Of a DNA stretch of 64,000 bases, positions 30,830 to 64,000 are shown piece by piece (positions within the stretch are counted from its first letter, which is position 1; each line of letters begins with the position of its first letter). Location of the stretch: contig CAZPJI010000001.1 in assembly GCA_964586925.1 (NCBI GenBank), positions 63,280-127,279 on the forward strand, written 5' to 3'. Source of the stretch: an uncultured Gammaproteobacteria bacterium. Lineage in GTDB: Bacteria > Pseudomonadota > Gammaproteobacteria > JAKDMP01. The translations under genes were made by a program, and so were the position numbers. The notes under the pieces are model-generated. The model was not told the origin of the DNA and did no database searches. It saw only the letters and a list, made by a program, of their open reading frames with translations.

Positions 30830-30834
30830 TCATT

Positions 30835-42859: not shown

Positions 42860-42874
42860 CCGCTTAGCAACGCA

Positions 42875-43165
42875 ATGTTCAGTGGCAGCTCGGGCGAGTT
42901 GGCCCTCATATTTCTGCTGATGCTGCTCGTTTTCGGACCGGAGCGGCTGCCTGGGCTTGCCCGTAATTTCGGCAAACTGGTCCGCCGCTCCCGGATCCTC
43001 GTGCAGTCGGTATGGAATCAACTGGAAGATGAAATAGACCGTAGCGAAAAAGCTCAACGTAACAAGACCGCTGCTGCAGAACTCGGACGGCAAGTACAGG
43101 TTCCCGGCTCGGACAGGCAGGCACGGTCTGCCGAAAACGTGACAAATGATGATGCACAAGCTTGA
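42875..43165 (+). CDS. tatB: Twin-arginine translocase subunit TatB
   Basis: MFSGSSGELALIFLLMLLVFGPERLPGLARNFGKLVRRSR matches the TatB N-terminal consensus. It is 96 aa. Confidence 0.85.
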   Translation: MFSGSSGELALIFLLMLLVFGPERLPGLARNFGKLVRRSRILVQSVWNQLEDEIDRSEKAQRNKTAAAELGRQVQVPGSDRQARSAENVTNDDAQA

Positions 43166-43253
43166 GTATGACCGCCACATACAGTGCAGCTTTGGCCGGC
43201 TTACAAAACAGCTTGAATACGAATATGAGCATATGGTTGGGGTCTGGTGATCG

Positions 43254-45073: not shown

Positions 45074-45085
45074 GAGCCCCCCGAA

Positions 45086-47431
45086 TCAAGTTAATCCGTT
45101 ATCCGTGCCTGGCACGGACTGAACCATGCCCGCGCGTGCCGCGGCCTCTATTATCTGACCATAAGACAAGCCGCCATCGTTAACCGGTAACTGCCGGGGA
45201 AGCAGCACTTCAAAGCCTTCCCGCTCCAGGCGTGCAATTGCGGCCTCGGTAAGGACGCGGTTCTGGAAAACGCCGCCGGTCAATGCAATCCTTGAGATGT
45301 CGTGCCGTTCACGCAGAGTCATGGCCTGATCCACCAGAGCCCGGGCCAGGGTGGCATGGAATGCCGCGGCGCGTTCCGCCGCCGGACGTGAATGGTCGAG
45401 CTGGGCGGAAAGCAACGGCTTCCAATCGGTGACGAGCAGGCCCTTTTCCGTTTCCCGGATGGGCAACGGCATGCCCTCGGCTTGAAGATCCTGCGCCAGT
45501 GCCTCCAGTTGCATGGGAGCCTGTCCGTCGTAGCTGACGGAATGGGTACCGGCGACAATGGCCGAGGCCGCATCGAAAAGCCGCCCCACGCTGCTGGTAT
45601 GGGGGCTGTTGAGGCCATCATGCCAGGCTGTGCGCAGCAGCGGATCGGCAAAAGCTTCTCCCGCTTTCCAGGCAAGACCAGCTTCCCAGCACAGTCCGAG
45701 TGCCGAACGCCAGGGTTCGGTGATGACACGTTCTCCCCCCGGCAGGCGGAATGGCCGCCAGGTTGCGACGCGCCGCCACGCGCCGGGATACCCGAACAAG
45801 GCTTCCCCGCCCCAGATCGTGCCGTCTTCGCCCAGCCCGGTGCCGTCCCAGGCAAAACACAGCAGCGGTTCGTTCAGCATGTCGAATTCGCCTGCGGCGA
45901 CACTGGCGTGGGCGTGATGGTGGAACACTTCCGTTACCGGCAGACCGCTGTTCTTTGCCCATCGGGAGTTGGGGAAGTCGGGGTGAGCGTCGCAGACGAG
46001 CGCTTCGGCACGTACGCCGTAAAGTTTTTGCAGATCGGCGCACACTTGTCGGAATACCCGGCGCGAGCGGGGGCTTGCGAGATCGCCTATATGGGGCGAG
46101 ACCACAATACGGTCTTCCCAGGCGAGCGCCACAGTAGTCTTCATGAAGGCGCCGACGGCAAGGAGCGGGCGCTGCAGGCGGAAAGGCAAATCGAGTTCCA
46201 GCGGGGCGATGCCGCGGCCGAGCCGGATCCGCAGCAGTCCGCCCGCGGCGGGCCGCAGCACCGGGTCGTCGGCAGGCCGCTCGATGGGCCGGTTGTGATG
46301 CAGGAACGCGTCGGCGACCCCACCCAGGCGTTTCTCGGCCTCGTTGGGATCGGTCAGGACCGGTTCGCCGCTGACGTTCCCCGAAGTCGCCACCACGGGG
46401 CGTTCGAAGCCCCCCAGCAATAGGTGGTGCAGCGGACTGTATGGCAGCATGAGCCCGATCTCGGTCAACGAGGGCGCGATTCCAGGGGCGAGCGGGGCAT
46501 CGTCGCGGCGCTCGACCAGCACGATGGGACGGACGGGATCGAGCAGGGCTTCGGCTTCCGTAGACCCCATGCCGGCGAGAGCGCGGGCCCACTCAAGTCC
46601 GTCATCGCCGGTCGCCGGAATCATGAGCGCAAGCGGCTTGTCGGGCCGGTGCTTGCGGCCGCGCAGCCGCATAACGGCGTCTTGGTCCGCTGCATCACAA
46701 AGCAGGTGATAGCCGCCGATGCCGCGCACGGCAACGGTTTCGCCGGCGCGCAGGGCGTCCAGGCAGGCCGCGAGGGCCGCTTCCGTATCCTCCACGGCCG
46801 GTTCGCCCGGGCGCGACCATGTCAAACCGGGACCGCATACCGGGCAGGCCAGGGGTTGGGCATGGAAGCGCCGATCCAGCGGATTTTCGTATTCCTTCCG
46901 GCAATCCGGGCAGAGCGTGAAGCCGGCGAGCGTCGTGTTGGGCCGGTCGTAGGGCATTGCGCGGATGATCGTGTAGCGTGGCCCGCACTGCGTGCAATTG
47001 ATGAACGGGTAACGGTTGCGGCGGGCGGCAGGATCGTTGAGTTCGGCAAGACAATCGTCGCAGGCGAACTGATCGGGGGGCACGTGGATGCTTGCCGACT
47101 TTGCGGTCTCGCTTTCACGGATGACGAAGCGGTCGTAACCCTTCCGCGCACTTTCTTCATCACGCAACAGATGGGGGCGTGCCAGCGGAGGCGCTTGGGC
47201 GATCAGTTCCCGGCTGAATTGGGCCAGTGCCGAATCATTGCCTTCGACGTGAATATGGACTTCTCCACCGGTATTGCACACCCAGCCGGCGAGCTGGTAA
47301 TGGTGTGCCAGACGATAGACGAAGGGACGGAAGCCGACGCCCTGCACGCGCCCGACGACCGTAATATTGCGCCCCGCCAATACCGGCATTGCGACGGTTG
47401 CCGATGTCGGGTTTGAATTGGAGCGCGGCAT
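45086..47431 (-). CDS. hypF: [NiFe]-hydrogenase maturation carbamoyltransferase HypF
   Basis: It has an N-terminal acylphosphatase domain (VVGRVQGVGFRPFVYRLA), two CxxC-x18-CxxC zinc fingers and YrdC and Kae1-like carbamoyltransferase domains. It is about 780 aa. Confidence 0.93.
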   Translation of the reverse strand: MPRSNSNPTSATVAMPVLAGRNITVVGRVQGVGFRPFVYRLAHHYQLAGWVCNTGGEVHIHVEGNDSALAQFSRELIAQAPPLARPHLLRDEESARKGYDRFVIRESETAKSASIHVPPDQFACDDCLAELNDPAARRNRYPFINCTQCGPRYTIIRAMPYDRPNTTLAGFTLCPDCRKEYENPLDRRFHAQPLACPVCGPGLTWSRPGEPAVEDTEAALAACLDALRAGETVAVRGIGGYHLLCDAADQDAVMRLRGRKHRPDKPLALMIPATGDDGLEWARALAGMGSTEAEALLDPVRPIVLVERRDDAPLAPGIAPSLTEIGLMLPYSPLHHLLLGGFERPVVATSGNVSGEPVLTDPNEAEKRLGGVADAFLHHNRPIERPADDPVLRPAAGGLLRIRLGRGIAPLELDLPFRLQRPLLAVGAFMKTTVALAWEDRIVVSPHIGDLASPRSRRVFRQVCADLQKLYGVRAEALVCDAHPDFPNSRWAKNSGLPVTEVFHHHAHASVAAGEFDMLNEPLLCFAWDGTGLGEDGTIWGGEALFGYPGAWRRVATWRPFRLPGGERVITEPWRSALGLCWEAGLAWKAGEAFADPLLRTAWHDGLNSPHTSSVGRLFDAASAIVAGTHSVSYDGQAPMQLEALAQDLQAEGMPLPIRETEKGLLVTDWKPLLSAQLDHSRPAAERAAAFHATLARALVDQAMTLRERHDISRIALTGGVFQNRVLTEAAIARLEREGFEVLLPRQLPVNDGGLSYGQIIEAAARAGMVQSVPGTDNGLT

Positions 47432-47597
47432 AAAGCGGCCTCAGGTCCGGGCGTCGGCCGGTGAGGGAATGGCGTTGAAAGAAGTCACGTTGCAGTCTCC
47501 GGCCGTGCGAAAAACACTGGTGCTCTCGCAAAGCTGCAGAACCCGCAAAAAATAATTTCTTTTCTTTGCGACTTGGCGCCTTTGCGGGAGTTTCTTT

Positions 47598-49340
47598 TCA
47601 CGTCTTTATATCCATTGGCGCAGCCTCGGGAACCTGCCACCCGAGCTGCCGGTGCCGGGCCAGGTAGAGCGGCGTCCAGGCATGGGGCACGCGGTAGACG
47701 AATTTGTAGCGGGCGACGTGATAGCTCGGATCGAATCCGTAGAAGTTGAGCCGCATCCGCTCCAACTCTTCCTCGCGGTAGGCCCTAAGCGGCTTGGCGG
47801 CCTCGTCGCGACTCCTGCGCCGGTCTTTCGCGGCGAGGCGGCGGGCGAAGTCCGCGGGATGCGCAAGCCTTTGTGCACGCGCACGCACGTCCTCCATGAA
47901 AGCGCCGGGTTCGGGGCCTGCTTCATCGTCAAGCAGGCCCCAGGATTTTGCCGCTCCGGACAGCACCGGAAGCCGGTGTTGCATGATGCGTCCCGATTCG
48001 TCCGCGCCCACGCGCCGCGGGAGCAGGTACGTCCAGTATTCCGAGCCGTACAGGTTACCCATGTTCTGGTAATGGGGATTGAGGACGATGCCCCGGCGCG
48101 CATAGATTTCATCGGCCGCCAGGGCCAGGAAAACTCCGCCCGCGCCCGCATTGCCCCTGAGCGCTGCGATTGTGAGCTTGTCCGCGGTAGTGATGATCTC
48201 CTCCGCGAGATCATCCATGGCATTGATGTTGCGCCAGGATTCATCGGCCGGGCTGGCGGCGGCCTCGATGGTATTGAGGTCGAGGCCGTTCGACCAGAAA
48301 TCCCGTCCACCCATGAGAACGATGACCCGCGTGGGGCGAGAGCACGCGTGGCGATACGCCGCCAGGAGCCGGCGGCAGCGCGCCGTGCTCATGGCGCCGT
48401 TGTAGAAATCGAAGTACAGATATCCGACCGCGCCGTCTTCCTGGTAAAGGATGTCCATGTATCCGATATCGTTCGGGGCAGCCGTTTCTGAACACGCTTC
48501 CGGCACTCCTGCAAGGCGTGAATCGCCGAGTGCGGCGACTGCCGGCAGTTTGAAAGGCAGGGCGGCTTCGCCGAGGGCGCGCAGATGACCGATCCAGATC
48601 GCACCGTCGCCTGTCGCCCGGCAAACCGCGCCGTGGTATTGGGTCAGGATATCTCCGGGTTTGCCCCGAAAACCCATGGCAGGATGTGCGTCGACGGTCC
48701 GGCAGGGCAGGCCGAGGATTTCATCCTCGACGCCGGGATTGCCGTCGCCGGCCCATATCTTGCGTAGCGCGGTGCGCGTGTCGTCGCCGGCCCAATCGAT
48801 CCTGCGCTCAGATTGGCGCATCATTGGCCGCCAGCCGCGGCCAGCGGCGCCCGGGAAATTTGCAGCAGGAATCGGTTCGAAGCCGGGTTCGCCGGCGTGC
48901 GCCACGGCCTCGAGCACCGCCTGCACGGCCGCTTCCGTTACTTCGAATCGGTAGAGACTGCTCTTTCGCGCTTCGCGCATGGGGAAACCGCGCGCTGCCC
49001 ATACCGGTCCGGCGTCCATTTCGGCCTCGGCTTGCAACACGGTTACGCCCCAGTATGCCTCCTGTTCGAGAATCGCCCGGTCCAACGCGGAAGGGCCGCG
49101 GTCGCCGGGCGGACCAGGATGGACGATGAGGCAGCGGTGCCGGCGCCACACGGCTTCGGGGATGGCACGCTTGAGGTATGGGGCAACGATGAGGTCGGGC
49201 TGAAACAGATCGACCGCTTCGATCGTGGCCGGATCGTTGATGTCGAGTTCGACCGAAAGTTCGTGCCCGCGCTCTGCCAACTCCGCGTAAATACGTTGGC
49301 TCAGGCTGTTGAATGTATGACAGAGCAGGAGAATACGCAT
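47598..49340 (-). CDS. hypX: HypX/HoxX hydrogenase maturation factor
   Basis: It has an N-terminal N10-formyl-THF transformylase-like domain (MRILLLCHTFNSLSQRIYAELAERGHEL...VHPGPPGDRGPSALD) and a C-terminal crotonase-like domain. The start chosen is MRILLL (49340), which overlaps the hypD stop (TGATG-type coupling). The track ORF extends to 49535. Confidence 0.8.
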   Translation of the reverse strand: MRILLLCHTFNSLSQRIYAELAERGHELSVELDINDPATIEAVDLFQPDLIVAPYLKRAIPEAVWRRHRCLIVHPGPPGDRGPSALDRAILEQEAYWGVTVLQAEAEMDAGPVWAARGFPMREARKSSLYRFEVTEAAVQAVLEAVAHAGEPGFEPIPAANFPGAAGRGWRPMMRQSERRIDWAGDDTRTALRKIWAGDGNPGVEDEILGLPCRTVDAHPAMGFRGKPGDILTQYHGAVCRATGDGAIWIGHLRALGEAALPFKLPAVAALGDSRLAGVPEACSETAAPNDIGYMDILYQEDGAVGYLYFDFYNGAMSTARCRRLLAAYRHACSRPTRVIVLMGGRDFWSNGLDLNTIEAAASPADESWRNINAMDDLAEEIITTADKLTIAALRGNAGAGGVFLALAADEIYARRGIVLNPHYQNMGNLYGSEYWTYLLPRRVGADESGRIMQHRLPVLSGAAKSWGLLDDEAGPEPGAFMEDVRARAQRLAHPADFARRLAAKDRRRSRDEAAKPLRAYREEELERMRLNFYGFDPSYHVARYKFVYRVPHAWTPLYLARHRQLGWQVPEAAPMDIKT

Positions 49341-50506
49341 CAGGCCGGCGACCGACATATTTTTTCGGATACAGGCTGCTCGGCAAGACCGCGGTGATGG
49401 CGGTACTTGTAGTAAGCGGCGCAGGCGCCTTCGGAGGACACCATGCACGATCCGATAGGGTTGCTCGGGGTGCAGACGGTCCCGAATATCTTGCAATCCA
49501 TGGGCTTCTTTGCGCCGCGTATGATGGCTGGGCACTGGCAGGCCTTGTTTTCGGGCACCGGCCGCGCCACCAATCCGAACCGGCGTTCGGCATCGAACGC
49601 CGCGTATGCGTCTTTAATTTTAAGGCCGCTGTAGGGCACGTTCCCGAGGCCCCGCCACTCGAATTCGGCACGCAGTTCGAACACTTCGGCCACCAGCCGT
49701 TGTGCCTTCAGGTTGCCCTCGCGCGTAACGCCGCGCAAGAACTGGTTCTCTACCGTAGCCCGGCCCGAGTTGAGCTGATCGACGAGCATGCGGATCGAAA
49801 GGAGCACGTCGAGCGGTTCGAAGCCCGAAATCACGACCGGCTTCTGGTACTCCCGGGCGAAATACTCGTAAGGGCGGCTGCCGATGACGGTGCTCACATG
49901 CGACGGGCCGATGAAACCGTCCACCTTCACGCTACCCAGGGAGCGCACTTCCGGAGAGTCGAGGATGCTCTGGATGGCCGAAGGGGTCAGCACGTGATTG
50001 CAGTACACCGTAAAGTTGCGCAGCCCGAGGCGGCTTGCTTCCAGGATGGCCAACGCCGTGGGCGGGGTCGTGGTCTCGAAACCGATGGCGAAAAACACGA
50101 CGTTGTTTTCCGGGTTCTCCTGTGCGATCCGTACCGCCTCGGTTGCGGATGTAACGACTCTGACGTCGCTGCCCCTGGAACGCGCTTTGACCAGGCTGCG
50201 CTTTCGCGAGGCGGGGACACGCAACATATCGCCGTAGCTCGCAAGTATCACGTCGTCCCGTTCGGCCAGCTCGACAGCCAGATCCAGGCGCGGGATCGCC
50301 AGCACGCACACCGGGCAGCCGGGGCCGTGCACCAGCTCCACATTCTCCGGCAACAGATCCTGGACACCATGGCGAAAAATCGCATGGGTATGGCCGCCGC
50401 AGAACTCCATCAAGTGATAGCTGCGGCGCGGATCTACCTCTTGCGCCAACTTTCCGGCGAGGGCCGCGGCCGCCTGGCCGTTACGAAACTCGCGGATATA
50501 CCGCAT
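49340..50506 (-). CDS. hypD: [NiFe]-hydrogenase maturation factor HypD
   Basis: MRYIREFRN is the typical HypD N-terminus. It has the CGxH, GPGCPVC and C-terminal Fe-S cysteine motifs. The start is taken at the internal Met (50506) of the track ORF. Confidence 0.9.
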   Translation of the reverse strand: MRYIREFRNGQAAAALAGKLAQEVDPRRSYHLMEFCGGHTHAIFRHGVQDLLPENVELVHGPGCPVCVLAIPRLDLAVELAERDDVILASYGDMLRVPASRKRSLVKARSRGSDVRVVTSATEAVRIAQENPENNVVFFAIGFETTTPPTALAILEASRLGLRNFTVYCNHVLTPSAIQSILDSPEVRSLGSVKVDGFIGPSHVSTVIGSRPYEYFAREYQKPVVISGFEPLDVLLSIRMLVDQLNSGRATVENQFLRGVTREGNLKAQRLVAEVFELRAEFEWRGLGNVPYSGLKIKDAYAAFDAERRFGLVARPVPENKACQCPAIIRGAKKPMDCKIFGTVCTPSNPIGSCMVSSEGACAAYYKYRHHRGLAEQPVSEKICRSPA

Positions 50507-50738
50507 CGGGCGATTCTCCAATGGCCTCTGCCAGCTCGGCAAAGAGCGCCAGTGTCTTTTCCGCTTCTTCGACGTCGAGCTTGTTGATGGCATGGCCTAC
50601 GTGCACGATGACATAGTCGCCCGGTTGCACGTCATCCAGGAGTGCAACGGATATATGACTGCGGATGCCGCCGGTATCCACGAGTGCGATCTCGTCCGGA
50701 AGCAATTCCACGACTTGTGCGGGCACCGCGAGGCACAT
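50481..50738 (-). CDS. hypC: [NiFe]-hydrogenase maturation chaperone HypC
   Basis: MCLAVPAQVVEL... has the N-terminal Cys2 signature of HypC/HupF. It is 85 aa and overlaps the hypD start. Confidence 0.9.
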   Translation of the reverse strand: MCLAVPAQVVELLPDEIALVDTGGIRSHISVALLDDVQPGDYVIVHVGHAINKLDVEEAEKTLALFAELAEAIGESPDAVYPRVS

Positions 50739-50741
50739 GAT

Positions 50742-51503
50742 TTAGCCCGTCCTGGACAAGTGCAGCGAGGGACGCATGCTCATTTGCTCTCCAAGCCATC
50801 CGAGCCAGGGATCAAGTGACTCAGCGAGTCGAGAGGATACCAGGAAGACAGGCGCTGCGTTGCCGATCGTACGCACGGCCTTTTCGGCTTTGTCCGGATC
50901 GAAATCGCCCTGCAAGGCTTGGAGCAGATCGGTCTTGGTCAATAGCACTAGATCCGACTCACGGAACATGACGGGATACTTGGCGGGCTTGTCATCGCCT
51001 TCGGTCGTACTCAGCAAGGTAACGTTGAGATGTTGCCCGAGATCGAAACTGGCCGGGCAAACCAGGTTGCCGACGTTCTCGATAAAAAGGACGTCGATTT
51101 CGTCGAGATCCATGCCGTGCAAGGCATCGTGCACCAGGTGGGCATCCAGATGGCAGGCCGTGCCGGTCGTGATCTGTACGGCCGGTACGCCGCAACTCCG
51201 GATCCTTTCTGCATCGTTTTCCGTTTCTAGGTCACCTTCTATGACTGCGATACGCAGATTCTTGTCCAAATTCCGAATTGTCGCTTCCAGGAGGCTCGTT
51301 TTTCCGGCCCCGGGGGATGACATCAGGTTTATTGCAAGGACACCATGGGCATCGAAATGCTCGCGGTTGTGCGCTGCCTGACGGTCGTTGACATCCAACA
51401 AGTCGGTCAACACCTCGATGGTATCTTTCCCGGAATTCGCATGAATCGCATGTGCATGCTGTTTATTTCCGGAAGTAATCGTGCAGCCGCATGTTTCACA
51501 CAT
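50742..51503 (-). CDS. hypB: [NiFe]-hydrogenase nickel-incorporation GTPase HypB
   Basis: It has an N-terminal metal-binding CxxCGC (MCETCGC), a G1 motif (SSPGAGKTSLLE) and the SIMIBI-class GTPase fold. The start is taken at the internal Met. Confidence 0.9.
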   Translation of the reverse strand: MCETCGCTITSGNKQHAHAIHANSGKDTIEVLTDLLDVNDRQAAHNREHFDAHGVLAINLMSSPGAGKTSLLEATIRNLDKNLRIAVIEGDLETENDAERIRSCGVPAVQITTGTACHLDAHLVHDALHGMDLDEIDVLFIENVGNLVCPASFDLGQHLNVTLLSTTEGDDKPAKYPVMFRESDLVLLTKTDLLQALQGDFDPDKAEKAVRTIGNAAPVFLVSSRLAESLDPWLGWLGEQMSMRPSLHLSRTG

Positions 51504-51903
51504 CTCTATGTTCCTCCACAAAGTCAGCGGATGCCGGCAGCGGTTCATACGAAGAGTCTTCGGTTTGCAGCTCCAGGCTCGCCAGTATCAGTTCATCTCC
51601 ACCCAGAAGCGTGGTGTGGTAGTCGCCGCAATTGGGACACAGCAGTTTGTTTGTCGGTACGACCGACTCCATACCGCAACCTTGGCAGCGTACCCTCGGG
51701 GGCATCTCCTCGGTCGCCAGAACCGCTTCTTCGGCCAGCGTCCCGTGGCGGGCAACAAGGAAAGTACGCTGCAACAGAACGGGTACGACGCCCGAAAGCG
51801 GACCGATCTTCAGGTCGATTCGAGTGACTCGTACAGCCCGGTTTTGCTGAGCAATTTCTTCGACTTGGGACAATAAAGCCTGGCATATGGCAAGTTCGTG
51901 CAT
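51496..51903 (-). CDS. hypA: [NiFe]-hydrogenase nickel-insertion protein HypA (with about 20-aa C-terminal extension)
   Basis: It has MHELAICQALL..., a MHE nickel-binding N-terminus and two CxxC pairs (CQGCG...CPNCG). Confidence 0.88.
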   Translation of the reverse strand: MHELAICQALLSQVEEIAQQNRAVRVTRIDLKIGPLSGVVPVLLQRTFLVARHGTLAEEAVLATEEMPPRVRCQGCGMESVVPTNKLLCPNCGDYHTTLLGGDELILASLELQTEDSSYEPLPASADFVEEHRDV

Positions 51904-51950
51904 CGGCATTCACCTCACAAAAAGTATAGAAGCAGCACAGCCGTAACCTC

Positions 51951-52632: not shown

Positions 52633-53102
52633 ACGAACCGATGGACATGGCCGGGTCCGCAGCGGCTGCCGGCCGACAACCGCCCCCGGATGAAGCGGAG
52701 ACGATAGGCGCGGGCTTCGCCGCCATTCTAGGCGAGCTGGTTCAGCTTCTCGAGCGTTTTTCAGAAACCGGCGAACGCGGCGTGATCGATCTTCACACCC
52801 TTCCCATGTCGCCGGTGGAGTACGAGAATCTGCGCGATGTCCTCGGACGGGGAGAAGTGGCCGCCGAGCTTGACATTGGCGGTCCATCGTCAATTTACGA
52901 AACGAGTTTTCACGGCGCTTGGTGGGTGCAGCACTGCACGCCGGACGGTGAGGTTGCGGCGGAATATATCGAGGTCGCCGCGGTGCCTGAAATGCTGCTT
53001 GCGGATGCCTCCGAAGCCCGCCGCGACGCACAGCGATTGAGGACCCGGATTGCGCACTGGGAACCCTTAGCGAGTAACGAGGGGGTGACAGAAGATGACT
53101 AG
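52623..53102 (+). CDS. Hydrogenase-operon protein of unknown function (159 aa)
   Basis: Its start overlaps hoxM and its stop overlaps hynS. It has an acidic C-terminus and no motif I can assign to HyaE/HybE/HupH with confidence. Confidence 0.5.
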   Translation: MAMNEPMDMAGSAAAAGRQPPPDEAETIGAGFAAILGELVQLLERFSETGERGVIDLHTLPMSPVEYENLRDVLGRGEVAAELDIGGPSSIYETSFHGAWWVQHCTPDGEVAAEYIEVAAVPEMLLADASEARRDAQRLRTRIAHWEPLASNEGVTEDD

Positions 53103-54240
53103 ATCCGAATCCGTCCAAACGGTCAATGACGCACTTGACAGGCAAGGCATCAGTCGACGGACTTTCCTGAAGAGCTGCATGCTTGCCGCTTCCGCGATGG
53201 CTTTGTCGCCGCTGGCCGGATCGGCCATGGCAAAGCAGCTGGGCAAGATGAAACGGCCGTCCGTAATCTACCTTTCGTTCCAGGAGTGTACGGGATGCCT
53301 GGAATCGCTGACCCGTTCTTTCAGCCCCACGTTGGAGCATTTGATATTCAACGTAATCTCCCTGGACTACGACGACACCCTCATGGCCGCCGCCGGCCAC
53401 CAGGCCGAAGCCGCCAAGGAGCAGGCGATGCGCGACAACTACGGCAAATACGTCCTTGTCGTAGACGGTGCCATCCCCTTGGCGTTCGGCGGAGCATGCC
53501 ATACGGCGGCGGGCAAGAGCGCGATCCAGATCCTCAAGGAGGCGGCCAAAGGAGCCAGGGCGATCGTTGCGGTGGGCACATGCGCGACCTTCGGTGGCCT
53601 TCCGCATGCCAATCCGAATCCGACCGGCGCGATAGGCGTGTCGGATCTGATCAAGGACAAGCCTGTGATCAACGTCTCGGGTTGTCCGCCCATTCCCGTG
53701 GTCATGGCGGGAACGATCATGCACTTCTTCGCTTTCGACAAGGTCCCGGAACTGGATGAGCTGCATCGCCCGAAGATGTTCTATGGCAATACGATCCACG
53801 ACCGTTGTTACCGCCGGCCTTTCTACGATGCCGGCAAGTTTGCCGAGAGCTTCGACGACGAAGGTGCGCGCAACGGCTGGTGCCTGTACAAGCTCGGCTG
53901 CAAGGGGCCGACCACGTACAACTCCTGTGCCACGCTGAAATGGAACCAGGGGGTGAGTTTCCCGATCGAGTCCGGACATCCTTGCCTGGGCTGTTCCCAG
54001 CCGAATTTCTGGGACGGCGGCAGCTTCTACGCGGCGTTACCCACGCCGAAGTGGGGCAAGGCCGGCGAAGGCAATCCTTCCAAGGCGGGAGAGATCGCCG
54101 GTGCCGCGGCCGGTATCGGGGCTGGGGTCGGGCTTGCGGCTGCGGGACTGTCGCGTTATCGCCAATACCGCCGGGCCATAAAGGCGGCGGCTGCCGCAGA
54201 AAATGGCGACGACAGCGACGGGCAATCAAAGGAGGAATGA
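53095..54240 (+). CDS. hynS: [NiFe] hydrogenase small subunit (HynS, Isp-type group 1)
   Basis: It has a Tat signal (SRRTFLKSCMLAASAMALSPLAGSAMA) and the Fe-S cluster Cys ladder (CTGC...GTCATFGG...CPP...C..C) of small subunits. It is 381 aa. Confidence 0.9.
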   Translation: MTRSESVQTVNDALDRQGISRRTFLKSCMLAASAMALSPLAGSAMAKQLGKMKRPSVIYLSFQECTGCLESLTRSFSPTLEHLIFNVISLDYDDTLMAAAGHQAEAAKEQAMRDNYGKYVLVVDGAIPLAFGGACHTAAGKSAIQILKEAAKGARAIVAVGTCATFGGLPHANPNPTGAIGVSDLIKDKPVINVSGCPPIPVVMAGTIMHFFAFDKVPELDELHRPKMFYGNTIHDRCYRRPFYDAGKFAESFDDEGARNGWCLYKLGCKGPTTYNSCATLKWNQGVSFPIESGHPCLGCSQPNFWDGGSFYAALPTPKWGKAGEGNPSKAGEIAGAAAGIGAGVGLAAAGLSRYRQYRRAIKAAAAAENGDDSDGQSKEE

Positions 54241-56386: not shown

Positions 56387-58132
56387 ATGAGTACGCAGAC
56401 CATAGTTGTAGATCCAATCACCCGTATCGAAGGCCATCTTCGGATTCAGGCCGAGATGAACGGAAATGCAATTGCACAGGCCTCGAGTTCGGGCATGATG
56501 GTTCGCGGTATCGAAATCATTCTTCGCGACCGCGACCCTCGCGATGCCTGGGCGTTTGCCCAGCGCGCTTGCGGGGTATGTACGCTGGTGCATGGAATTG
56601 CCTCCGTTCGCGCGGTTGAGAATGCGCTGCACTATCCGATACCCGACAATGCGCGTTTGATTCGCAATCTGATGATTGCACAGCAGTACGTGCACGATCA
56701 CGTCATGCACTTCTACCAGCTTCATGCGCTGGACTGGGTGGATGTTGTCTCGGCGTTGAAGGCCGATCCCAAGGCGACTTCTGCGCTGGCGCAATCGATT
56801 TCTGACTATTCGCGCTCTTCGCCCGGCTATTTCGCCGACGTGCAGGACAAAGTCAAACGGCTGGTGGAATCTGGACAGCTTGGCATTTTCGCGAACGGCT
56901 ATTGGGGGCATCCGGCATACAAGCTGCCGCCCGAGGCGAACCTGATGGCCGTGGCCCATTATCTGGAAGCACTTGCCTGGCAACGGGAGGCATGCAAGAT
57001 CCATACCGTGTTCGGAGGCAAGAACCCCCATCCGAACTTCGTGGTGGGAGGCGCACCAGTCGCCATCAGCGCTTCATCCGGCGGACAGTCGACCAATACG
57101 ACGGCTGTTGACATGGAAGGACTTGCACTCGTCGAGGACATCATCGGGAAACTTCGCAACTTCGTCGATAAGGTTTATCTGCCGGATACCGTTGCTATTG
57201 CTTCCTTCTACAAGGATTGGTTCAAGCCGGGTCACGGGGAAGGCACGGGCAATTTCATGACCTACGGGGAATTTCCCGGGAAAAGCATTGACGATCTTTC
57301 GAGTCTGATGATTCCACGTGGCGCGATCCTGAATCGGGATCTCACGCGCATTCACCCGGTGGATCTAGACGACCCGACTCAGGTACAGGAATTCGTCTCC
57401 CATTCCTGGTACGACTATTCGTCCGGGAAGAATACCGGTCTGCACCCTTACAAGGGCCAGACCAAACTCGATTACACGGGTCCCAAACCGCCCTTCAAAC
57501 TACTCGACACCAAGGGCAGTTATTCATGGTTGAAATCGCCGCGTTGGCGGGGACATCCCATGGAGGTGGGGCCGCTCTCGCGGGTGCTCATGCTGTATGC
57601 CAGCGGGCACGAGCAGACGAAATCGCTCGTCGACCAGACGCTCGCCAGGCTGGATTTGCCGATCGAAGCCGTCTTCTCGACCATGGGGCGCACAGCGGCC
57701 CGCACATTGGAAAGCAAGATCATTGCCGACGCGATGTCAGGCTGGTTCAGCGAGTTGATGAGCAACGTGAAGAAGGGCGATTTGAACACTTGGAACGGCA
57801 AGCTGTGGGAACCCTCTAGTTGGCCGAAGCATGCCGAAGGCGCCGGCTATACGGAGGCGCCGCGAGGTGCGCTCGCGCACTGGATCGTCATCGAAGACGG
57901 TTTGATCGACAACTACCAGATGGTGGTGCCGACTACCTGGAACGCGGGTCCGCGCGATGCGCAAGGCCAGGACGGCGTCTATGAGTCATCGATCATCGGG
58001 CAGAAGCTTTACGATACGACGCAACCGCTTGAGATACTGAGGACGATACACAGTTTCGATCCCTGCATTGCCTGCGCCGTGCACGTCAGCGACCCTGATG
58101 GCAAGGAACTGCTTCAGGTCAAGGTCTGTTGA
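56387..58132 (+). CDS. hynL: [NiFe] hydrogenase large subunit (HynL)
   Basis: It has the N-terminal RIEGH...RACGVCT motif (L1) and the C-terminal DPCIACAVH motif (L2) with the endopeptidase cleavage site. Confidence 0.93.
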   Translation: MSTQTIVVDPITRIEGHLRIQAEMNGNAIAQASSSGMMVRGIEIILRDRDPRDAWAFAQRACGVCTLVHGIASVRAVENALHYPIPDNARLIRNLMIAQQYVHDHVMHFYQLHALDWVDVVSALKADPKATSALAQSISDYSRSSPGYFADVQDKVKRLVESGQLGIFANGYWGHPAYKLPPEANLMAVAHYLEALAWQREACKIHTVFGGKNPHPNFVVGGAPVAISASSGGQSTNTTAVDMEGLALVEDIIGKLRNFVDKVYLPDTVAIASFYKDWFKPGHGEGTGNFMTYGEFPGKSIDDLSSLMIPRGAILNRDLTRIHPVDLDDPTQVQEFVSHSWYDYSSGKNTGLHPYKGQTKLDYTGPKPPFKLLDTKGSYSWLKSPRWRGHPMEVGPLSRVLMLYASGHEQTKSLVDQTLARLDLPIEAVFSTMGRTAARTLESKIIADAMSGWFSELMSNVKKGDLNTWNGKLWEPSSWPKHAEGAGYTEAPRGALAHWIVIEDGLIDNYQMVVPTTWNAGPRDAQGQDGVYESSIIGQKLYDTTQPLEILRTIHSFDPCIACAVHVSDPDGKELLQVKVC

Positions 58133-59112
58133 TGATGGCGCGGGAGGCAAAGTTCGGACACCGCCTGCTGGGGGTTGGATTGGTCGTTGCGGCCCTGAAT
58201 CTGGTGGCATTCGCCGGCTTGCTCAAGCTGGCAAGCATGGGTGCGGCCATTGGAGGCATTGGCACGCTCGCATACCTGCTCGGTGCCCGGCATGCCTTTG
58301 ATATCGATCACGTCGCTGCCATCGACAATGTGACGCGACGATTGCGCCAGAATGGACACAAGCCGACTGCCGTGGGGTTGTTCTTTTCCATGGGACATTC
58401 CACGATTGTTGTCGCGGCCACGGCTGTATTGCTTCTGGGGGGCGAGCATTTCCGCCGCTTGTTGCCGGTCTTGCAAGGGTGGGGGGGTGTCCTCGGCGCC
58501 GGGATATCGGCGGCGTTCCTCATCATGATCGGTACGGCCAATGTCGCTATCGCCCGGCAGGTATGGAGGACACGCGGGGAATCCACGGACGAGGCGGGCG
58601 CATGGGAAATCGAGGCTCTGCTCGAACGCCGCGGTTTTATGGCCCGGATCATGAGCTTTGCCTACCGGCGCATCGACAAGAGCCGGAAAATGTATCTGGT
58701 CGGCCTGCTGTTCGGTCTGGGTTTCGATACAGCCAGCGAGATCATACTGCTGGCCTTGACGGCTGCTGCCATGCACCAATACGGTCTGAGTCCCTGGTCG
58801 TTGCTCGGACTGCCCCTGCTGTTCGCGGCCGGGATGACACTGATGGATTCCGCCTGTGGTCTGGGCATATTGAGTCTCTACAATTGGTCCATTGCCGGAG
58901 GGCGGCGTACGTGGATAGTCAATATCGGCGTTACCGGGCTCTCGACACTGCTCGCGTTAGGGGTAGGGACCGTGGAGCTTTCCACGTCGTTTCATTGGTC
59001 CATGGTGCCTACCCTGGGCCTTGTTGCCGGCATCGGCGTCATGTTTACTTTGTTTACATTCAGGCGTCAGCCCGTGACCGGTCCCATCGAAGCCGAAGGG
59101 ATAAGGAATTGA
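58129..59112 (+). CDS. hoxN: NiCoT-family high-affinity nickel permease (HoxN/HupN/NixA)
   Basis: It has the signature HAFDIDHVAAIDN in TM2 and FFSMGHST. It is 327 aa with 8 TM helices. Confidence 0.85.
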   Translation: MMMAREAKFGHRLLGVGLVVAALNLVAFAGLLKLASMGAAIGGIGTLAYLLGARHAFDIDHVAAIDNVTRRLRQNGHKPTAVGLFFSMGHSTIVVAATAVLLLGGEHFRRLLPVLQGWGGVLGAGISAAFLIMIGTANVAIARQVWRTRGESTDEAGAWEIEALLERRGFMARIMSFAYRRIDKSRKMYLVGLLFGLGFDTASEIILLALTAAAMHQYGLSPWSLLGLPLLFAAGMTLMDSACGLGILSLYNWSIAGGRRTWIVNIGVTGLSTLLALGVGTVELSTSFHWSMVPTLGLVAGIGVMFTLFTFRRQPVTGPIEAEGIRN

Positions 59113-59223
59113 ATCCAGGCCACGACATGTGATAAGACTCGGTGTTTTCCCATGTCTGCCGGCTATAGAGGGATGAAATTCAGGGCAAGTGCCCATCGTC
59201 CGAATCGACAAAAGGAAGAACAG

Positions 59224-60927
59224 ATGCAGGAGAAGGGATTCGACCACGCAGCCGCACACCCATTGGCCCGATCGACCATATTTTCCATATTGACTTTGAG
59301 CGGCCTCGCCGTACTGCTGCTCGTCGGTTGCATGGCCGCTTCGGCAAGAACGCCTATGACCGCGGCTCCGGCGCCGGGTAGCACTGATACCGCGGCCGGC
59401 ATCCCGAATGCGATCTGTCTCGCCTGCCATACGCATGGACCGGGACCACACGTCGATAACAAGGCGTTCTCCCATTCCGTACATGCCAAGCTGCAATGCA
59501 CGAGTTGCCATCGCGATATCAGGGCGGTACCGCACCCGGCGAAGCCCGCGCCCGTCCAGTGCGGCACCTGCCATACCGATGTGGCTGCGGCTTATGCCAA
59601 AGGTCTGCATGGAAAACTGCACGCAGCCGGCTTAAAAACCGCGCCTACCTGTAAGACTTGCCACGGCACCCACGGTATAAAGAACGTTCACTCGCAAGCA
59701 TTTTTCCAGGCCATGCCGAAGCGGTGCGCATCCTGCCACCGGAGAGCCTACGCGAGCTATCGCAGCACCTTTCACGGCGAGGCCGGGCAATTGGGAATGC
59801 GCGGTGCGGCAACATGCTGGAACTGTCACCGCCCGCATGACGTGTTGTCGCCGGGCAATCCTCGTTCGCAGGTTGCAGCGGGCAACCTGATCAATACCTG
59901 CAGTCAGTGCCATGCCGGCGCAAACAGGAACTTCGTGCAGTTCGACGTTCATCCCGACCCCTCCGATCCTTCGCGGTCGCTGCCGGTTTACCTGACACAC
60001 GTGTTCATGGTGGGGTTGCTGATTTTCGTATTCGGATTTTTCGGTCTCCATACGATCCTCTGGCTGCAACGCAGCGCTGTTGCGTTGATTCGAGGCGAGG
60101 TGCAGAGGCATCGCAGCGATACCGTTTACGTTCGCAGATTCAATCTGGTGGCGCGCCTCATGCATATTACGGTCGTCGTCAGTTTTATGCTGCTAGCGTT
60201 GACGGGACTGCCGTTGCTCTATCACGACGCGGTCTGGGCCAGGCCAATATCGCATCTGCTGGGAGGTGAGACCGTTGCGAGGGTCATTCATCACGTTTGT
60301 GGCGTCGTCACCTTCGGCTATTTCTTCTTCCATTTGCTGTACCTGACTTATTTACGGCTTCGGAAAAAACGGCATGGATTGCTTTACGGGCCCGATTCGA
60401 TGACCCCCAGATGGCAAGACATCACCGACATGTTCAAAAACTTTCGGTGGTTCCTGTATCTGGGTAAACAGCCGCAACTCGATCGCTGGACCTATTGGGA
60501 AAAATTCGACTACTGGGCCGTGTTTTGGGGCGTTGCGCTGATCGGGCTCTCGGGCCTGGCGATATGGTTCTATGCACCGTTCACACATGTGTTCTCCGGC
60601 GCCTACCTGAACGTGGCCTGGGTTGTGCATGGCGAAGAGGCTCTGCTTGCCGTCGGATTCATCTTTATCTTCCATTTCTTCCATAATCACTTGCGGCCCG
60701 AGAATTTTCCGATCGACATCACGATTTTTACCGGCCGACTGCCGCTCAGCCGTTTTCGAGAGGAGCGCCCACTGCAATACGAACGGCTCAGGCAGGAAGG
60801 TACGCTGGACGAGGTACTTGTGCCGCCGCCTTCGCGCTTGACGGTCCTGTGGTGGCAGTTCTTCGGCTATACGGTGGTTTTTGTCGGGGTGGCGCTGATT
60901 ATCAGTGTGATCTATGCAATGATTTAG
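59224..60927 (+). CDS. Fusion of a periplasmic heptahaem c-type cytochrome with a dihaem b-type cytochrome membrane domain (CbcL-like)
   Basis: It has an N-terminal signal/anchor, then seven CxxCH sites (CLACH, CTSCH, CGTCH, CKTCH, CASCH, CWNCH, CSQCH). These are followed by about 300 aa with 5-6 TM helices bearing conserved His pairs typical of the HydC/FdnI (Ni/Fe-hydrogenase b-type cytochrome) family. The track ORF starts at 59152; the probable start is 59224. Confidence 0.75.
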   Translation: MQEKGFDHAAAHPLARSTIFSILTLSGLAVLLLVGCMAASARTPMTAAPAPGSTDTAAGIPNAICLACHTHGPGPHVDNKAFSHSVHAKLQCTSCHRDIRAVPHPAKPAPVQCGTCHTDVAAAYAKGLHGKLHAAGLKTAPTCKTCHGTHGIKNVHSQAFFQAMPKRCASCHRRAYASYRSTFHGEAGQLGMRGAATCWNCHRPHDVLSPGNPRSQVAAGNLINTCSQCHAGANRNFVQFDVHPDPSDPSRSLPVYLTHVFMVGLLIFVFGFFGLHTILWLQRSAVALIRGEVQRHRSDTVYVRRFNLVARLMHITVVVSFMLLALTGLPLLYHDAVWARPISHLLGGETVARVIHHVCGVVTFGYFFFHLLYLTYLRLRKKRHGLLYGPDSMTPRWQDITDMFKNFRWFLYLGKQPQLDRWTYWEKFDYWAVFWGVALIGLSGLAIWFYAPFTHVFSGAYLNVAWVVHGEEALLAVGFIFIFHFFHNHLRPENFPIDITIFTGRLPLSRFREERPLQYERLRQEGTLDEVLVPPPSRLTVLWWQFFGYTVVFVGVALIISVIYAMI

Positions 60928-61247: not shown

Positions 61248-62135
61248 ATGCAATCGATACTCTCATCATTGAGAATGAATTTCCTGACCTTGACGCTCGC
61301 TTGCGTTTTCCTCGGGACGACCGTTTCCTACAGGCTGGTCGGACACCTGCAGATTGTTGACATAGTACTGGTCTTGATAGGCGCGCTGCTGGCTCATGCA
61401 TGCGTAAACCTGCTTAACGAATACCAGGACTATAGAAGCGGGCTGGATGTCATTACGGTAAAAACGCCGTTCAGCGGTGGCAGCGGCGCATTGCCGGCGC
61501 ATCCGGAAGCGGCTGGAGCAACGCTTACTGCAGCCGTCATCACATTCTCTGCAACGGCTGTAATCGGCGTGTATTTCCTTCTCTCGCATGGCCTATGGCT
61601 GCTGCCGGTTGGAATACTCGGCTTGCTTACGATCGTCTTCTATACCAACTGGATCACCCGCCATGCCTTGTTGTGCCTGGTTGCACCGGGGTTCGGCTTT
61701 GGCCCCCTGATGGTGATGGGAACTGGTTTCGTTCTCACCAATCACTATACTTGGCAAGCATTCATCGCTTCGTTGACGCCGTTTTTCCTGGTCAGCGAAC
61801 TCCTGTTGATCAATCAATTTCCCGACGTGGAAGCTGATCGGCAGGTAGGGCGGCAGCATTACCCCATTCTGATCGGGCGCCGGCGCAGTGCTCTGATCGG
61901 CGGTGCTTTTCTTCTGCTGGCTTATGCACCTATCGCTGGTGGGGTATTGACTGGTTTCTTTCCGAAGATGGCAGCGCTGGGATTGATTCCGTTGCTGTTC
62001 GCAGTGCCGCTGGCATGGAACATGTGGCGCAAATCCGAAAGCCCCAATTCGATTGTCTCTTATCTGGGTTTCAATGTGGCCGTGATCATGGCAACCATTA
62101 TTCTGTTTGCCGCCGGCTGGCTGTTCAAGTATTGA
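61248..62135 (+). CDS. UbiA-superfamily prenyltransferase, MenA-like (second copy)
   Basis: It has the motif NEYQDYRSGLD (MenA-type NDYxDxxxGxD with Glu at position 2) and about 8 TM helices. It is 295 aa. Confidence 0.7.
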   Translation: MQSILSSLRMNFLTLTLACVFLGTTVSYRLVGHLQIVDIVLVLIGALLAHACVNLLNEYQDYRSGLDVITVKTPFSGGSGALPAHPEAAGATLTAAVITFSATAVIGVYFLLSHGLWLLPVGILGLLTIVFYTNWITRHALLCLVAPGFGFGPLMVMGTGFVLTNHYTWQAFIASLTPFFLVSELLLINQFPDVEADRQVGRQHYPILIGRRRSALIGGAFLLLAYAPIAGGVLTGFFPKMAALGLIPLLFAVPLAWNMWRKSESPNSIVSYLGFNVAVIMATIILFAAGWLFKY

Positions 62136-62200: not shown

Positions 62201-62554
62201 ATGGGTACACAACAACGGATCAATGCTCTGTTTGCGAGTATCGACCGGAAGGATGTCCGGGGATTTTCATCCTATCTCGCCAAGAATGTGGATTTTCGTT
62301 TTGGAAACGCCCCGATGGTTTCGGATCGGGAAACGGCTTCTTCAGCAGTGCAACAGTTTTTCGAAAGCGTCAAGGCTTTGCGGCATACTATTGAAGAAAC
62401 CTGGGAGCAGGGGGATCAAGTCGTCTGCCACGGAACCGTCACCTATACACGCCATGACGACAGCCGACTATCGGTGCCGTTTGCAAACATCTTTACGCTG
62501 CGTGAGGATCAAATATCGCGTTATCTGATTTTTGCCGATCTCTCGGACCTTTGA
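62201..62554 (+). CDS. SnoaL-like / NTF2-fold small protein
   Basis: The 117-aa protein has an alpha+beta cone-fold pattern (short N-terminal helix and C-terminal beta strands) resembling SnoaL-like polyketide cyclase / ketosteroid isomerase-like domains. Confidence 0.5.
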   Translation: MGTQQRINALFASIDRKDVRGFSSYLAKNVDFRFGNAPMVSDRETASSAVQQFFESVKALRHTIEETWEQGDQVVCHGTVTYTRHDDSRLSVPFANIFTLREDQISRYLIFADLSDL

Positions 62555-62872: not shown

Positions 62873-64000
62873 ATGGAAGGAGGGCCGGCGGGCGGTAACC
62901 GCAGAGTAATAGGCCGGGAGGGACTCGGGACGCTTCTCGAAGCACTGCACAGGGACGGCTACGAGGTGCTTGGTCCCACGGTGCGCGACGGCGCCATCGT
63001 GTACGCGCGTCTCGCCGGTGTCGAGGACCTGCCGGAAGGCTGGACAGATAGCCAGGAAGCGGGAAGCTATCGCTTGGAGCGGCGCGGCGACCGGGCGCTT
63101 TTCGGCTACGCCGTCGGGCCGCATTCGTGGAAGCAATTTCTGTATCCGCCGATCCAGCGCCTCTGGAAAGCGCAGAAAAAAGGTCGCGAAGTTACCATCA
63201 CCGGCGGCGAAAAACCGGCTGACAAGAAGTACGCTTTCATCGGTGTCCGGGCCTGCGAACTGCATGCCATGTCCATTCAGGACAGAGTTTTCCTGGGCGG
63301 ACCCTACCGCGATCCCGGGTATGAGGCGCGGCGGAGAAAGAGTTTCATCGTGGCCGTCAATTGCGGCCAGGCCGCGGCTACCTGTTTCTGCGTGTCGATG
63401 AAAACGGGGCCGAAGGTTGAATCCGGCTACGATCTTGCGCTCACGGAACTGCTCGATGGTGAGCACCACGAGTTCGTGGTGGAGGCAGGCAGCAAAGCCG
63501 GCCGCGCGATGCTCCGACGGCTTCCCGCGGCTGGACCGACCGCGGCGCAGCTTACCGCTGCGGTCGCCGTTGCCCGGCGCACGGCGGAACAGATGAGACG
63601 CCGCCTCGATACCGACGGATTGAAGACGTTGCTCCAGTCCAATCCCGAGCATCCTCGTTGGGAAGCGGTCGCCGAGCGTTGTCTGAGCTGCGGCAATTGC
63701 ACGATGGTGTGTCCCACCTGCTTCTGTACAACGGTGGAGGATCACAGCGACCTTGCCGGTTCAACCGCCGAGCGGGTACGCAAGTGGGACTCCTGTTTCA
63801 CGATGGATTTTTCTTATATCCACAGCGGCAGCGTTCGCAAGACGGCGAGTTCCCGCTATCGGCAATGGATGACGCACAAGCTGGCGAGCTGGCACGACCA
63901 GTTCGGCACGTCGGGGTGCGTCGGGTGCGGGCGCTGCATCGCGTGGTGCCCCGTCGGCATCGACATTACGGAAGAGGCTGCCGCCATTCGAGCAGACTTG
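62873..64000 (+). CDS. AsrA-like 4Fe-4S dicluster protein (anaerobic sulfite reductase subunit A / sulfhydrogenase beta-subunit family), 3' end outside window
   Basis: It is not in the ORF track because it runs off the window. An ATG at 62873 is preceded by GAGGAG. Translation gives [36 protein letters not shown]... with Cys clusters [26 protein letters not shown] and [14 protein letters not shown]. The antisense 337-aa ORF 62732-63745 in the track is judged spurious. Confidence 0.7.

Follow-up and report, generated by a model that had tools for sequence, protein, structure and literature searches.

The gene at 59224..60927 (+) of a 64,000-nucleotide (nt) stretch of DNA from an uncultured Gammaproteobacteria bacterium (assembly GCA_964586925.1, contig CAZPJI010000001.1, positions 63,280 to 127,279; hereafter the window) encodes a protein that its sequence identifies as an inner-membrane bc cytochrome of the CbcL/MtrH/MtoC family, placed there by architecture, fold, haem ligands and shared gene context rather than by a direct alignment to CbcL, MtrH or MtoC. 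The gene is most likely the last one of an operon for a Hyn-Isp [NiFe] hydrogenase and co-expressed with it. We lean towards an electron route from H2 through Hyn-Isp and quinone to the bc cytochrome and on to periplasmic cytochromes, in relatives further to MtrCAB and acceptors outside the cell. The following features of the gene and its product were located:

59113..59223, +, spacer of 111 nt between hoxN and the cytochrome gene, with the Shine-Dalgarno sequence AAGGAAG at 59212-59218 (sequence, promoter/terminator scan)
59224..60927, +, predicted bc cytochrome gene, 567 amino acids (aa), CbcL/MtrH/MtoC family (open reading frame, public gene calls, alignment, Shine-Dalgarno sequence)
59263..59337, +, signal or anchor helix, residues 14-38 (AlphaFold2 helix 14-38; hydrophobic segment 19-37)
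59401..59973, +, heptahaem c domain, residues about 60-250 (motifs, alignment, Pfam)
59980..60924, +, six-helix membrane domain, residues 253-566 (FdnI-like dihaem-b core in helices 2-5)
60487..60513, +, invariant WTYWEKFDY, residues 422-430, at the cytoplasmic start of helix 4 (alignment)

The open reading frame (ORF) listing of the window contains an intact frame of 591 aa at 59152..60927 (+), and an earlier note on this DNA had taken 59152 as the start of the gene. This is the longest frame, probably 72 nt too long at its 5' end. The start used is probably ATG 59224, because the Shine-Dalgarno sequence lies five bases before it, because this ATG and the first codons are kept in three relatives (L082-L084) in which the ATG at 59152 is not, and because public gene calls hold an identical product of 567 aa (100% identity). 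Residues are numbered here from ATG 59224; the numbering of the longer ORF is higher by 24. Together with the start codon, the 3' portion of the spacer is conserved in L082-L084. A chance ORF or a pseudogene was ruled out, all key residues being conserved.

Behind the signal or anchor helix, the N-terminal half of the protein carries seven CxxCH motifs between nt 59416 and 59913, within the family range of 3 to 23: CLACH, CTSCH, CGTCH, CKTCH, CASCH, CWNCH and CSQCH, starting at nt 59416, 59497, 59560, 59650, 59725, 59815 and 59899 (residues 65, 92, 113, 143, 168, 198 and 226). All seven were invariant in an alignment of 26 homologues with identities down to 37%, which bears out the seven periplasmic sites counted in the earlier note. 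Among the roughly 57 ORFs called in the window just one other contains any CxxCH, thus the seven motifs are not a product of chance. Candidate distal ligands are His 87, 104, 129, 150, 184, 205 and 243, six of them invariant and the seventh present in 23 of the 26 homologues; these residues would be enough for seven bis-His haems c, the coordination measured for Geobacter CbcL. The domain matched the Pfam families Cytochrome_C7, Paired_CXXCH_1, Cytochrom_c3_2 and Cytochrom_CIII, each above its cut-off, and the AlphaFold2 model presents it mostly as coil with short helices. The sequence LLVGC at 59320-59334, which closes the N-terminal helix, resembles a lipobox; its cysteine is shared by only part of the close relatives (among them P0002 and P0003), so that a lipidation is uncertain.

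The C-terminal half had been read as a HydC/FdnI-type dihaem b membrane domain, with a search against PF01292 proposed as a check. The match to PF01292 (Ni_hydr_CYTB) reached 40.8 bits against a cut-off of 30.1 and covers residues 329-508 in the numbering of the longer ORF (nt 60136-60675). A profile built from C-terminal domains retrieved Escherichia coli FdnI (1kqf_C) as the sole match among solved chains (E 4e-4), and the haem-b ligands of FdnI, His18/57/155/169, align with the invariant His314/356/469/484 of the window protein (codons at 60163, 60289, 60628 and 60673). The dihaem b reading thus stands. By sequence, the best match among solved chains was 28pb_A, an entry named "Cytochrome c" (E 3.4e-5). 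The AlphaFold2 model (predicted local distance difference test score, pLDDT, 80.7; predicted template modelling score, pTM, 0.74) has the N-terminal helix and six long membrane helices. The helix number and the conserved histidine ligands of the HydC/FdnI-like domain agree with the family. In this model the four histidines on helices 2, 3 and 5 are placed such that one haem could lie close to each of the two membrane faces. The most conserved motif of the family, WTYWEKFDY, aligns with FdnI Y109-F117 (N110, G112 and Q113 inside), a segment which we take from the 1KQF/1KQG structures to line the cytoplasmic-side quinone site that binds the inhibitor 2-heptyl-4-hydroxyquinoline N-oxide (HQNO). 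The quinone site of the window protein presumably lies close to the cytoplasmic face as well. Three further histidines (276, 370 and 489), beyond the FdnI-type ligands, were invariant in all 26 homologues and lie in the cytoplasmic half of the membrane domain; H356 and H370 are 14 residues apart, a spacing like that of a haem-ligand pair. They could hold a third cofactor, or be part of a quinone or proton site.

The CbcL/MtrH/MtoC family was defined by Zhong and Shi in 2018 with members from 15 phyla, 3-23 haem motifs, 416-1034 residues and mostly six helices; it is present in Fe(III) reducers and Fe(II) oxidisers, and its genes often adjoin mtrAB/mtoAB and other cytochrome genes (PMC6295460). 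A word-indexed protein search yielded more than 5,800 homologue matches, 749 clusters at 50% identity (E<=1e-30) were found among 1.84 billion representatives, and at least 590 genomic stretches carry members. Forms with about 7, 11 and 19 haems reflect gain or loss of haem modules before a constant core. In a count over 170 loci, the genes most often adjoining the cytochrome encode a NapC/NirT-like multihaem protein of roughly 500 aa, homologues of MtrA and MtrB, small c-cytochromes, a DUF5777 barrel, an extra PF01292 protein, Crp-type regulators and proteins for cytochrome maturation. A tblastn search of plasmids gave no match. Distant members adjoin MtrA/MtrB(/MtrC) and c-cytochromes, and full-length homologues at 35-50% identity sit in mtrAB(C) clusters resembling those described for mtrH and mtoC. 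The likeness to CbcL seen in the earlier note holds for the architecture; the protein is better regarded as a member of this large, surveyed family than as a special look-alike of CbcL.

Upstream of the cytochrome gene lie the genes of the hydrogenase and its maturation:

44066..51909, -, hypE, hypF, hypX-like, hypD, hypC, hypB and hypA, divergent from the hyn operon (Pfam AIRS/AIRS_C, HypF domains, Formyl_trans and ECH_1)
52087-52632, +, hynD-type maturation protease, first gene of the operon (PF01750 HycI, 68.5 bits)
52623-53102, +, hupH (PF04809 HupH_C, 81.6 bits)
53095..54240, +, hynS, [NiFe] small subunit with the twin-arginine translocation motif RRTFLKS and a hydrophobic C-terminal tail (TIGR00391, 431 bits against 179.5; Oxidored_q6 and NiFe_hyd_SSU_C)
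54244-54981, +, isp1, HmcE/TmcC/DsrM-like membrane b-cytochrome (NCBIfam TmcC and HmcE below the equivalog cut-offs; public call of 245 aa)
about 54978-56339, +, isp2, DsrK/HmcF-like iron-sulfur protein with CCG domain (NCBIfam DsrK and TmcB below the equivalog cut-offs; Pfam Fer4_8 and CCG; public call of 453 aa)
56387..58132, +, hynL, [NiFe] large subunit, 581 aa (PF00374, 766 bits; public 581-aa protein with 100% identity)
58129..59112, +, hoxN-type nickel/cobalt transporter (PF03824 NicO, 202 bits; TIGR00802, 245 bits, below the cut-off of 333)

The cytochrome gene starts 111 nt past hoxN in the order hynD-hupH-hynS-isp1-isp2-hynL-hoxN-cytochrome; its placement after hynSL-isp1-isp2-hoxN had been described in the earlier note. 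The hydrogenase is assigned to the Isp-type, group 1e, by gene order and protein families rather than by a HydDB-style classing of the large subunit; in Acidithiobacillus ferrooxidans the order hynS-isp1-isp2-hynL has been called group 1e (PMC7735108). The best named relatives of HynL come from metagenome-assembled genomes of Gammaproteobacteria (75% identity) and from Acidithiobacillus (72-73%). RadA, too, is matched best by metagenome-assembled genomes, and its nearest relative in culture is Natronospira at 67%. In a scan of 51.8-62.7 kb, no site in the spacer was convincing as a terminator or a sigma-70 promoter; site counts were no higher than in shuffled sequence, and the terminator-like matches fall inside hoxN. 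The scan neither proves nor disproves a co-transcription of hoxN and the cytochrome gene, which is plausible. The GC content at third codon positions of the cytochrome gene resembles that of the hyn genes, and an AT-rich gap of 320 nt separates it from the next gene, a putative prenyltransferase gene. In relatives, the equivalent hyp block is annotated with HypD, HupF_HypC, cobW and HypA. The HypX/HoxX-like gene with formyltransferase and enoyl-CoA hydratase domains (47598-49535, -) was also found in L082, L083, L171 and L172.

The co-occurrence with hydrogenase genes, for which the earlier note had proposed a survey, was followed in about 170 loci; the pattern-based matches from genomes and metagenomes are listed mostly at 35-50% identity, and close relatives came from exact-protein look-ups. 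In a neighbour-joining tree of the b domains, the cytochromes with 5-7 CxxCH motifs form a single clade of 13 leaves from uncultured Gammaproteobacteria. Hyn or Hyp genes lie within 10 kb in ten of these 13 loci, against two of about 160 outside the clade. The three remaining leaves comprise one with HoxN and the prenyltransferase, one with the prenyltransferase only, and a contig of 1.9 kb that is too short to judge; the relative P0021 has no hydrogenase on its contig of 12,268 bp. In L082, L083 and L084, whose cytochromes are 74-80% identical, the order hynS-isp1-isp2-hynL-hoxN-cytochrome is kept and the genes after the cytochrome differ in each, so that, with the window, four genomes carry the cytochrome gene within a hyn operon. 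The suspected link to the hydrogenase is thus stronger than the letters alone could tell: the gene order returns in three other genomes, and the 5-7-haem clade as a whole keeps close to Hyn-Isp, Hyp, HoxN or the MenA-like gene.

More distant members, at 50-57% identity, are arranged differently. L085 has the order hynL-hoxN-UbiA-cytochrome. In L086, genes for a dihaem c protein, a NapC/NirT protein and the cytochrome converge on UbiA-hoxN-hynL. L089 contains a complete hyn-isp operon with UbiA and, beyond a Crp-family regulator gene, a divergent cluster encoding a PdsA-like dihaem c, a NapC/NirT protein, the cytochrome, a decahaem of the OmcA/MtrC family, a decahaem of the DmsE/MtrA family and an MtrB/PioB porin; its MtrC, MtrA and MtrB proteins score above the NCBIfam cut-offs. 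L173 is similar, with the hydrogenase beside the cytochrome-Mtr cluster, and in L171/L172 mtrC-mtrA-mtrB-cytochrome stands beside hypE through hypA and hynD. In the Steroidobacteraceae loci L174/L175, hypF-hypE, a Crp-family regulator gene and ccm genes adjoin the cytochrome. Strand and order change while the linkage stays, which speaks for function rather than accident. The NapC/NirT gene is directly upstream of the cytochrome in L086, L089 and L173. The dihaem cytochrome upstream of NapC/NirT (L089 8736-9347; also in L086, L173 and L171) resembles PdsA, although its 167 bits fall short of the cut-off of 330; with this protein as periplasmic shuttle, the loci L086, L089, L171 and L173 would encode a complete route from the inner to the outer membrane. 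Homologues of the MenA-like prenyltransferase of the window were found at 47-69% identity in L085, L086, L089 and L173 and weakly in L005 and L091. Its recurrence with hynL-hoxN hints at a dedicated quinone for the hydrogenase-cytochrome chain.

Two observations were made besides. The hynL of L173 is called as three fragments (141, 49 and 207 aa) at 15902-17393, either a decaying hydrogenase beside an intact Mtr-cytochrome cluster or an error of the long-read assembly. The loci near a hydrogenase outside the clade are L007, from an 11-haem sister clade, and L138, with a distant 8-haem form. In L138, from a marine metagenome, the 8-haem member (29-1789, 40% identity) is directly followed by a [NiFe] small subunit (2171-3562, TIGR00391 471 bits); here the family may have become paired with a hydrogenase a second time, independently.

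Downstream of the cytochrome gene the window contains three further genes:

61248..62135, +, MenA/UBIAD1-like prenyltransferase of the UbiA family (PF01040, 88 bits; MenA models 89 bits against cut-offs >=264; best solved relative UBIAD1, E 2.8e-4)
62201..62554, +, SnoaL-like protein of 117 aa with no signal peptide (PF12680, 57 bits)
62873..64000, +, Fer4_22 iron-sulfur protein, cut by the window end (PF17179, 121 bits)

A second MenA/UBIAD1-like prenyltransferase of the UbiA family, far below the MenA equivalog cut-offs, is encoded at 39656-40681 (-). Homologues of the SnoaL-like protein (38-43%) stand directly upstream of 11-haem cytochromes of the sister clade in L011, L017, L020, L027, L032, L038 and L039, from Woeseiaceae and other Gammaproteobacteria, mostly between a PdsA-like dihaem c gene and the cytochrome, and the protein may be part of a cytochrome module. 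In L084 the equivalent of the Fer4_22 gene is followed by genes for cNMP-binding, NAD_binding_1/DHODB and Oxidored_q6 proteins and by one more gene, truncated where the contig stops. The Fer4_22 gene probably opens a second, cytoplasmic group-3-like [NiFe] cluster, by which the cytochrome would be flanked by two hydrogenase clusters. The region of about 30000-44000 has a lower GC content (0.49-0.55, about 0.60 elsewhere) and includes, besides ORFs that have no annotation, the genes of a GGDEF-EAL-GAF protein (36003-38963) and of a monohaem cytochrome c (41588-41914). It may mark a replacement or an island, since in L171/L172 the mtrCAB-cytochrome block sits just past hypE.

In the reading towards which we lean, the signal or anchor helix would export the N-terminal half, and the cytochrome-c maturation system would attach the seven bis-His haems c; four of the six membrane helices would form the FdnI-type bundle with two stacked haems b, and the protein would link the quinone pool of the membrane with soluble periplasmic cytochromes. 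Periplasmic HynSL would oxidise H2 and pass the electrons via Isp1, and Isp2, to a quinone; this could be a naphthoquinone whose synthesis involves the MenA-like prenyltransferase encoded nearby. The bc cytochrome would then oxidise the quinol and hand the electrons to periplasmic c-type cytochromes, from where they would move on in the relatives, which possess outer cytochromes of the OmcA/MtrC type, to MtrCAB and extracellular acceptors. Metal reduction in Shewanella depends on menaquinone. A low-potential naphthoquinone, which the MenA-like gene may supply, fits this dependence. Co-transcription, quinone species, outward direction and acceptor are what we infer from genes and contexts. The outward chain is favoured because CbcL oxidises menaquinol and reduces PpcA, and because the gene content of the cluster in the deeper relatives equals the cymA-mtrH-mtrCAB set of the Fe(III) reducer Rhodoferax ferrireducens. 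In vitro, CbcL passes electrons outward to the periplasmic cytochrome PpcA, and it is required for acceptors of low potential (bioRxiv 2022.08.31.506072). A direct conduit from the hydrogenase to the cytochrome, which the earlier note had considered, found no support; the behaviour of the family and the Mtr-cluster context of the relatives favour transfer through the quinone pool.

Several points weigh against this chain. The family placement sets the protein beside CbcL, MtrH and MtoC by description, rather than aligned with them. The window, with 59 kb upstream and 3 kb downstream, contains no MtrA, MtrB, MtrC, NapC/NirT or PdsA-like gene, and its only other c-cytochrome is the monohaem protein 17 kb away; adjoining c-cytochrome or mtrAB/mtoAB genes, common in the family, are absent here and present in L086, L089, L171-L173 and L005. 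With a quinone site on the cytoplasmic side, outward flow conserves no energy (bioRxiv 2022.08.31.506072), which makes an advantage for an H2 oxidiser hard to see. The b domain belongs, like FdnI and HyaC, to a class that normally moves electrons inward to quinone, and Isp1 already serves as the membrane partner of Hyn. The hypX gene, usually tied to hydrogenase maturation with O2, suggests an aerobic or microaerobic host, for which metal reduction is less obvious. Sequence does not separate quinol oxidases from quinone reductases in the family, and Fe(II) oxidisers carry it too (PMC6295460).

An inward flow is a possible though doubtful alternative, with the cytochrome as second anchor of the hydrogenase: the c domain would take electrons from the distal cluster of HynS, comparable to cytochrome c3 with the periplasmic hydrogenases of Desulfovibrio, and the b haems would reduce quinone at the cytoplasmic face in a proton-motive loop like that of HyaC/HupC or FdnI, parallel to Isp1/Isp2. 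The homology of the b domain to the inward-working FdnI and HyaC, the conserved motif aligned with the FdnI quinone-site segment on the cytoplasmic side, and a gene position where hupC/hyaC usually follows the structural genes all agree with this, as do the matches of the c domain to the cytochrome c3/c7 families. Moreover, this clade, alone in its tie to hydrogenases, has lost four haems relative to the 11-haem sister forms, and the inward direction would conserve energy, in contrast to the outward one. However, the deeper members of the clade hold the gene in an mtr/NapC/PdsA-like cluster on the opposite strand from hyn and outside the hyn operon, and the anchor role is already filled by Isp1. 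In an unlikely extension of this idea, the 5-7-haem clade would be an MtrH-type derivative dedicated to the hydrogenase, with a shortened c domain that docks on HynSL and an FdnI-like b domain that reduces quinone on the cytoplasmic side, a hitherto undescribed c-b fusion anchor and second proton-motive outlet for Isp-type hydrogenases; its partner might be a dedicated naphthoquinone from the co-inherited MenA-like enzyme, and the three extra histidines might bind a further cofactor.

We give little probability to an inward flow from other periplasmic donors, as proposed for MtoC, in which Fe(II) or another donor would feed the quinone pool and the hydrogenase would adjoin since both belong to a lithotrophy island sharing the quinone. 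MtoC homologues do occur in Fe(II) oxidisers (Gallionella ES-2, Dechloromonas), clustering with one from the sulfur oxidiser Sulfuricaulis, hypX and the second hydrogenase cluster suggest an aerobic lithotroph, and the said likeness of oxidases and reductases (PMC6295460) leaves room for uptake. The relatives, however, pair OmcA/MtrC-type decahaem genes with MtrAB as in the reducer R. ferrireducens, whereas the described Mto clusters of Fe(II) oxidisers have mtoA, mtoB and mtoD and no mtrC; the placement within the hyn operon in four genomes argues for a joint use with H2. Equally improbable appears a mere neighbourhood by chance, with the protein as an ordinary quinol:cytochrome c oxidoreductase, e.g., a bc1 bypass to oxidases or N-oxide reductases. 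About 158 of the 160 family members outside the clade have no hydrogenase nearby, some relatives are flanked by ccm genes and Crp-family regulators instead of hydrogenase genes, and the spacer of 111 nt could hide a promoter. Yet the linkage persists in same-strand, divergent and convergent layouts, at identities of 48-100% and in several populations of one metagenome, and what changes between the genomes is the set of genes downstream of the cytochrome, the hydrogenase side being the same throughout.

Proteins of this type, with their architecture and broad occurrence, have been published before, and seven haems are within the known range. Three aspects appear undescribed in the searchable open-access literature: the short-form clade tied to Isp-type hydrogenases, the cytochrome gene within the hyn operon in four genomes, and the recurring set of Hyn-Isp, HoxN, MenA-like prenyltransferase, bc cytochrome and Mtr pathway. 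The family survey makes no mention of hydrogenase (PMC6295460). The earlier note knew of no characterised pairing with an Isp hydrogenase; likewise none is described in the open-access literature searched, an absence that is weak evidence. Hydrogenases of group 1e (Isp-type) are common in bacteria of the sulfur and iron cycles, and the fate of their electrons past Isp1/Isp2 is a standing question. The clade, from uncultured soil and sediment Gammaproteobacteria, provides a concrete hypothesis for where these electrons go, as the hydrogenase comes with a CbcL/MtrH-type cytochrome, a MenA-like prenyltransferase and a nickel transporter, and in many cases also with the whole MtrCAB conduit. That electrons from H2 reach acceptors outside the cell, for example Fe(III), Mn(IV) and humics, is testable and, if true, would extend H2-driven metal reduction to lineages without any cultured member; in addition, the clade offers a short 7-haem member of the family that can be expressed for biochemistry. 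Since the sequence hydrogenase, quinone, inner-membrane cytochrome and Mtr is known from Shewanella and Geobacter, the advance is the conserved genomic coupling and the subclade, not a new mechanism.

Among the known systems, CbcL of Geobacter sulfurreducens (GSU0274) has the same order of signal sequence, N-terminal multihaem c domain and C-terminal six-helix HydC/FdnI-like dihaem b domain (PMC6295460; bioRxiv 2022.08.31.506072), and both proteins are without an iron-sulfur, flavin or molybdopterin partner. CbcL has nine haems, the window protein seven; the gene in the window is located in a hydrogenase operon of a gammaproteobacterial host, whereas cbcL has not been reported with hydrogenase genes. 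For CbcL the role as menaquinol oxidase and a c domain potential of -194 mV were measured, the window protein is known from its sequence. CbcL and MtrH/MtoC share about 35% identity (PMC6295460). MtrH of R. ferrireducens and MtoC of Gallionella ES-2 and Dechloromonas aromatica have the same family and architecture, with a function deduced from context only; mtrH of R. ferrireducens sits with cymA and mtrCAB, and the same gene content of NapC/NirT gene, cytochrome and MtrC/A/B is seen in L089, L173 and L171 (PMC6295460). MtoC of ES-2 has been described as nonahaem. Neither MtrH nor MtoC has been reported beside a hydrogenase, in contrast to the window copy, which has no Mtr/Mto genes nearby.

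FdnI and HyaC/HupC (PF01292) share the four-helix core with two b haems, held by one histidine on each of two helices and two on a third, and all four ligands are conserved in the window protein. Like hupC/hyaC of group 1d, its gene comes after the structural genes of the hydrogenase. Unlike these proteins, it possesses two extra membrane helices, a fused heptahaem c domain and the three additional invariant histidines, and its score in the FdnI equivalog model is 36 bits against a cut-off of 116. A plain HupC/HyaC subunit, i.e., a stand-alone four-helix dihaem b protein, was ruled out by the extra helices and the fused c domain. The proteins CymA/NapC/NirT perform the same task at the inner membrane in Mtr pathways, from quinol to periplasmic cytochromes, with an unrelated fold of a single helix, four haems, no b haems and a quinol site on the periplasmic side; this identity was ruled out as the window protein has no PF03264 match at E<=0.01. 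Unlike the HyaC/HupC systems, the adjacent Isp-type hydrogenase already has a b-type partner in Isp1. The gene order and the nature of Isp1/Isp2 match those of the Hyn-Isp (group 1e) hydrogenases of Thiocapsa, Allochromatium and A. ferrooxidans; in the A. ferrooxidans cluster as described (PMC7735108) there is no mention of a prenyltransferase or of a multihaem cytochrome, whereas the operon of the window is extended by hoxN and the bc cytochrome.

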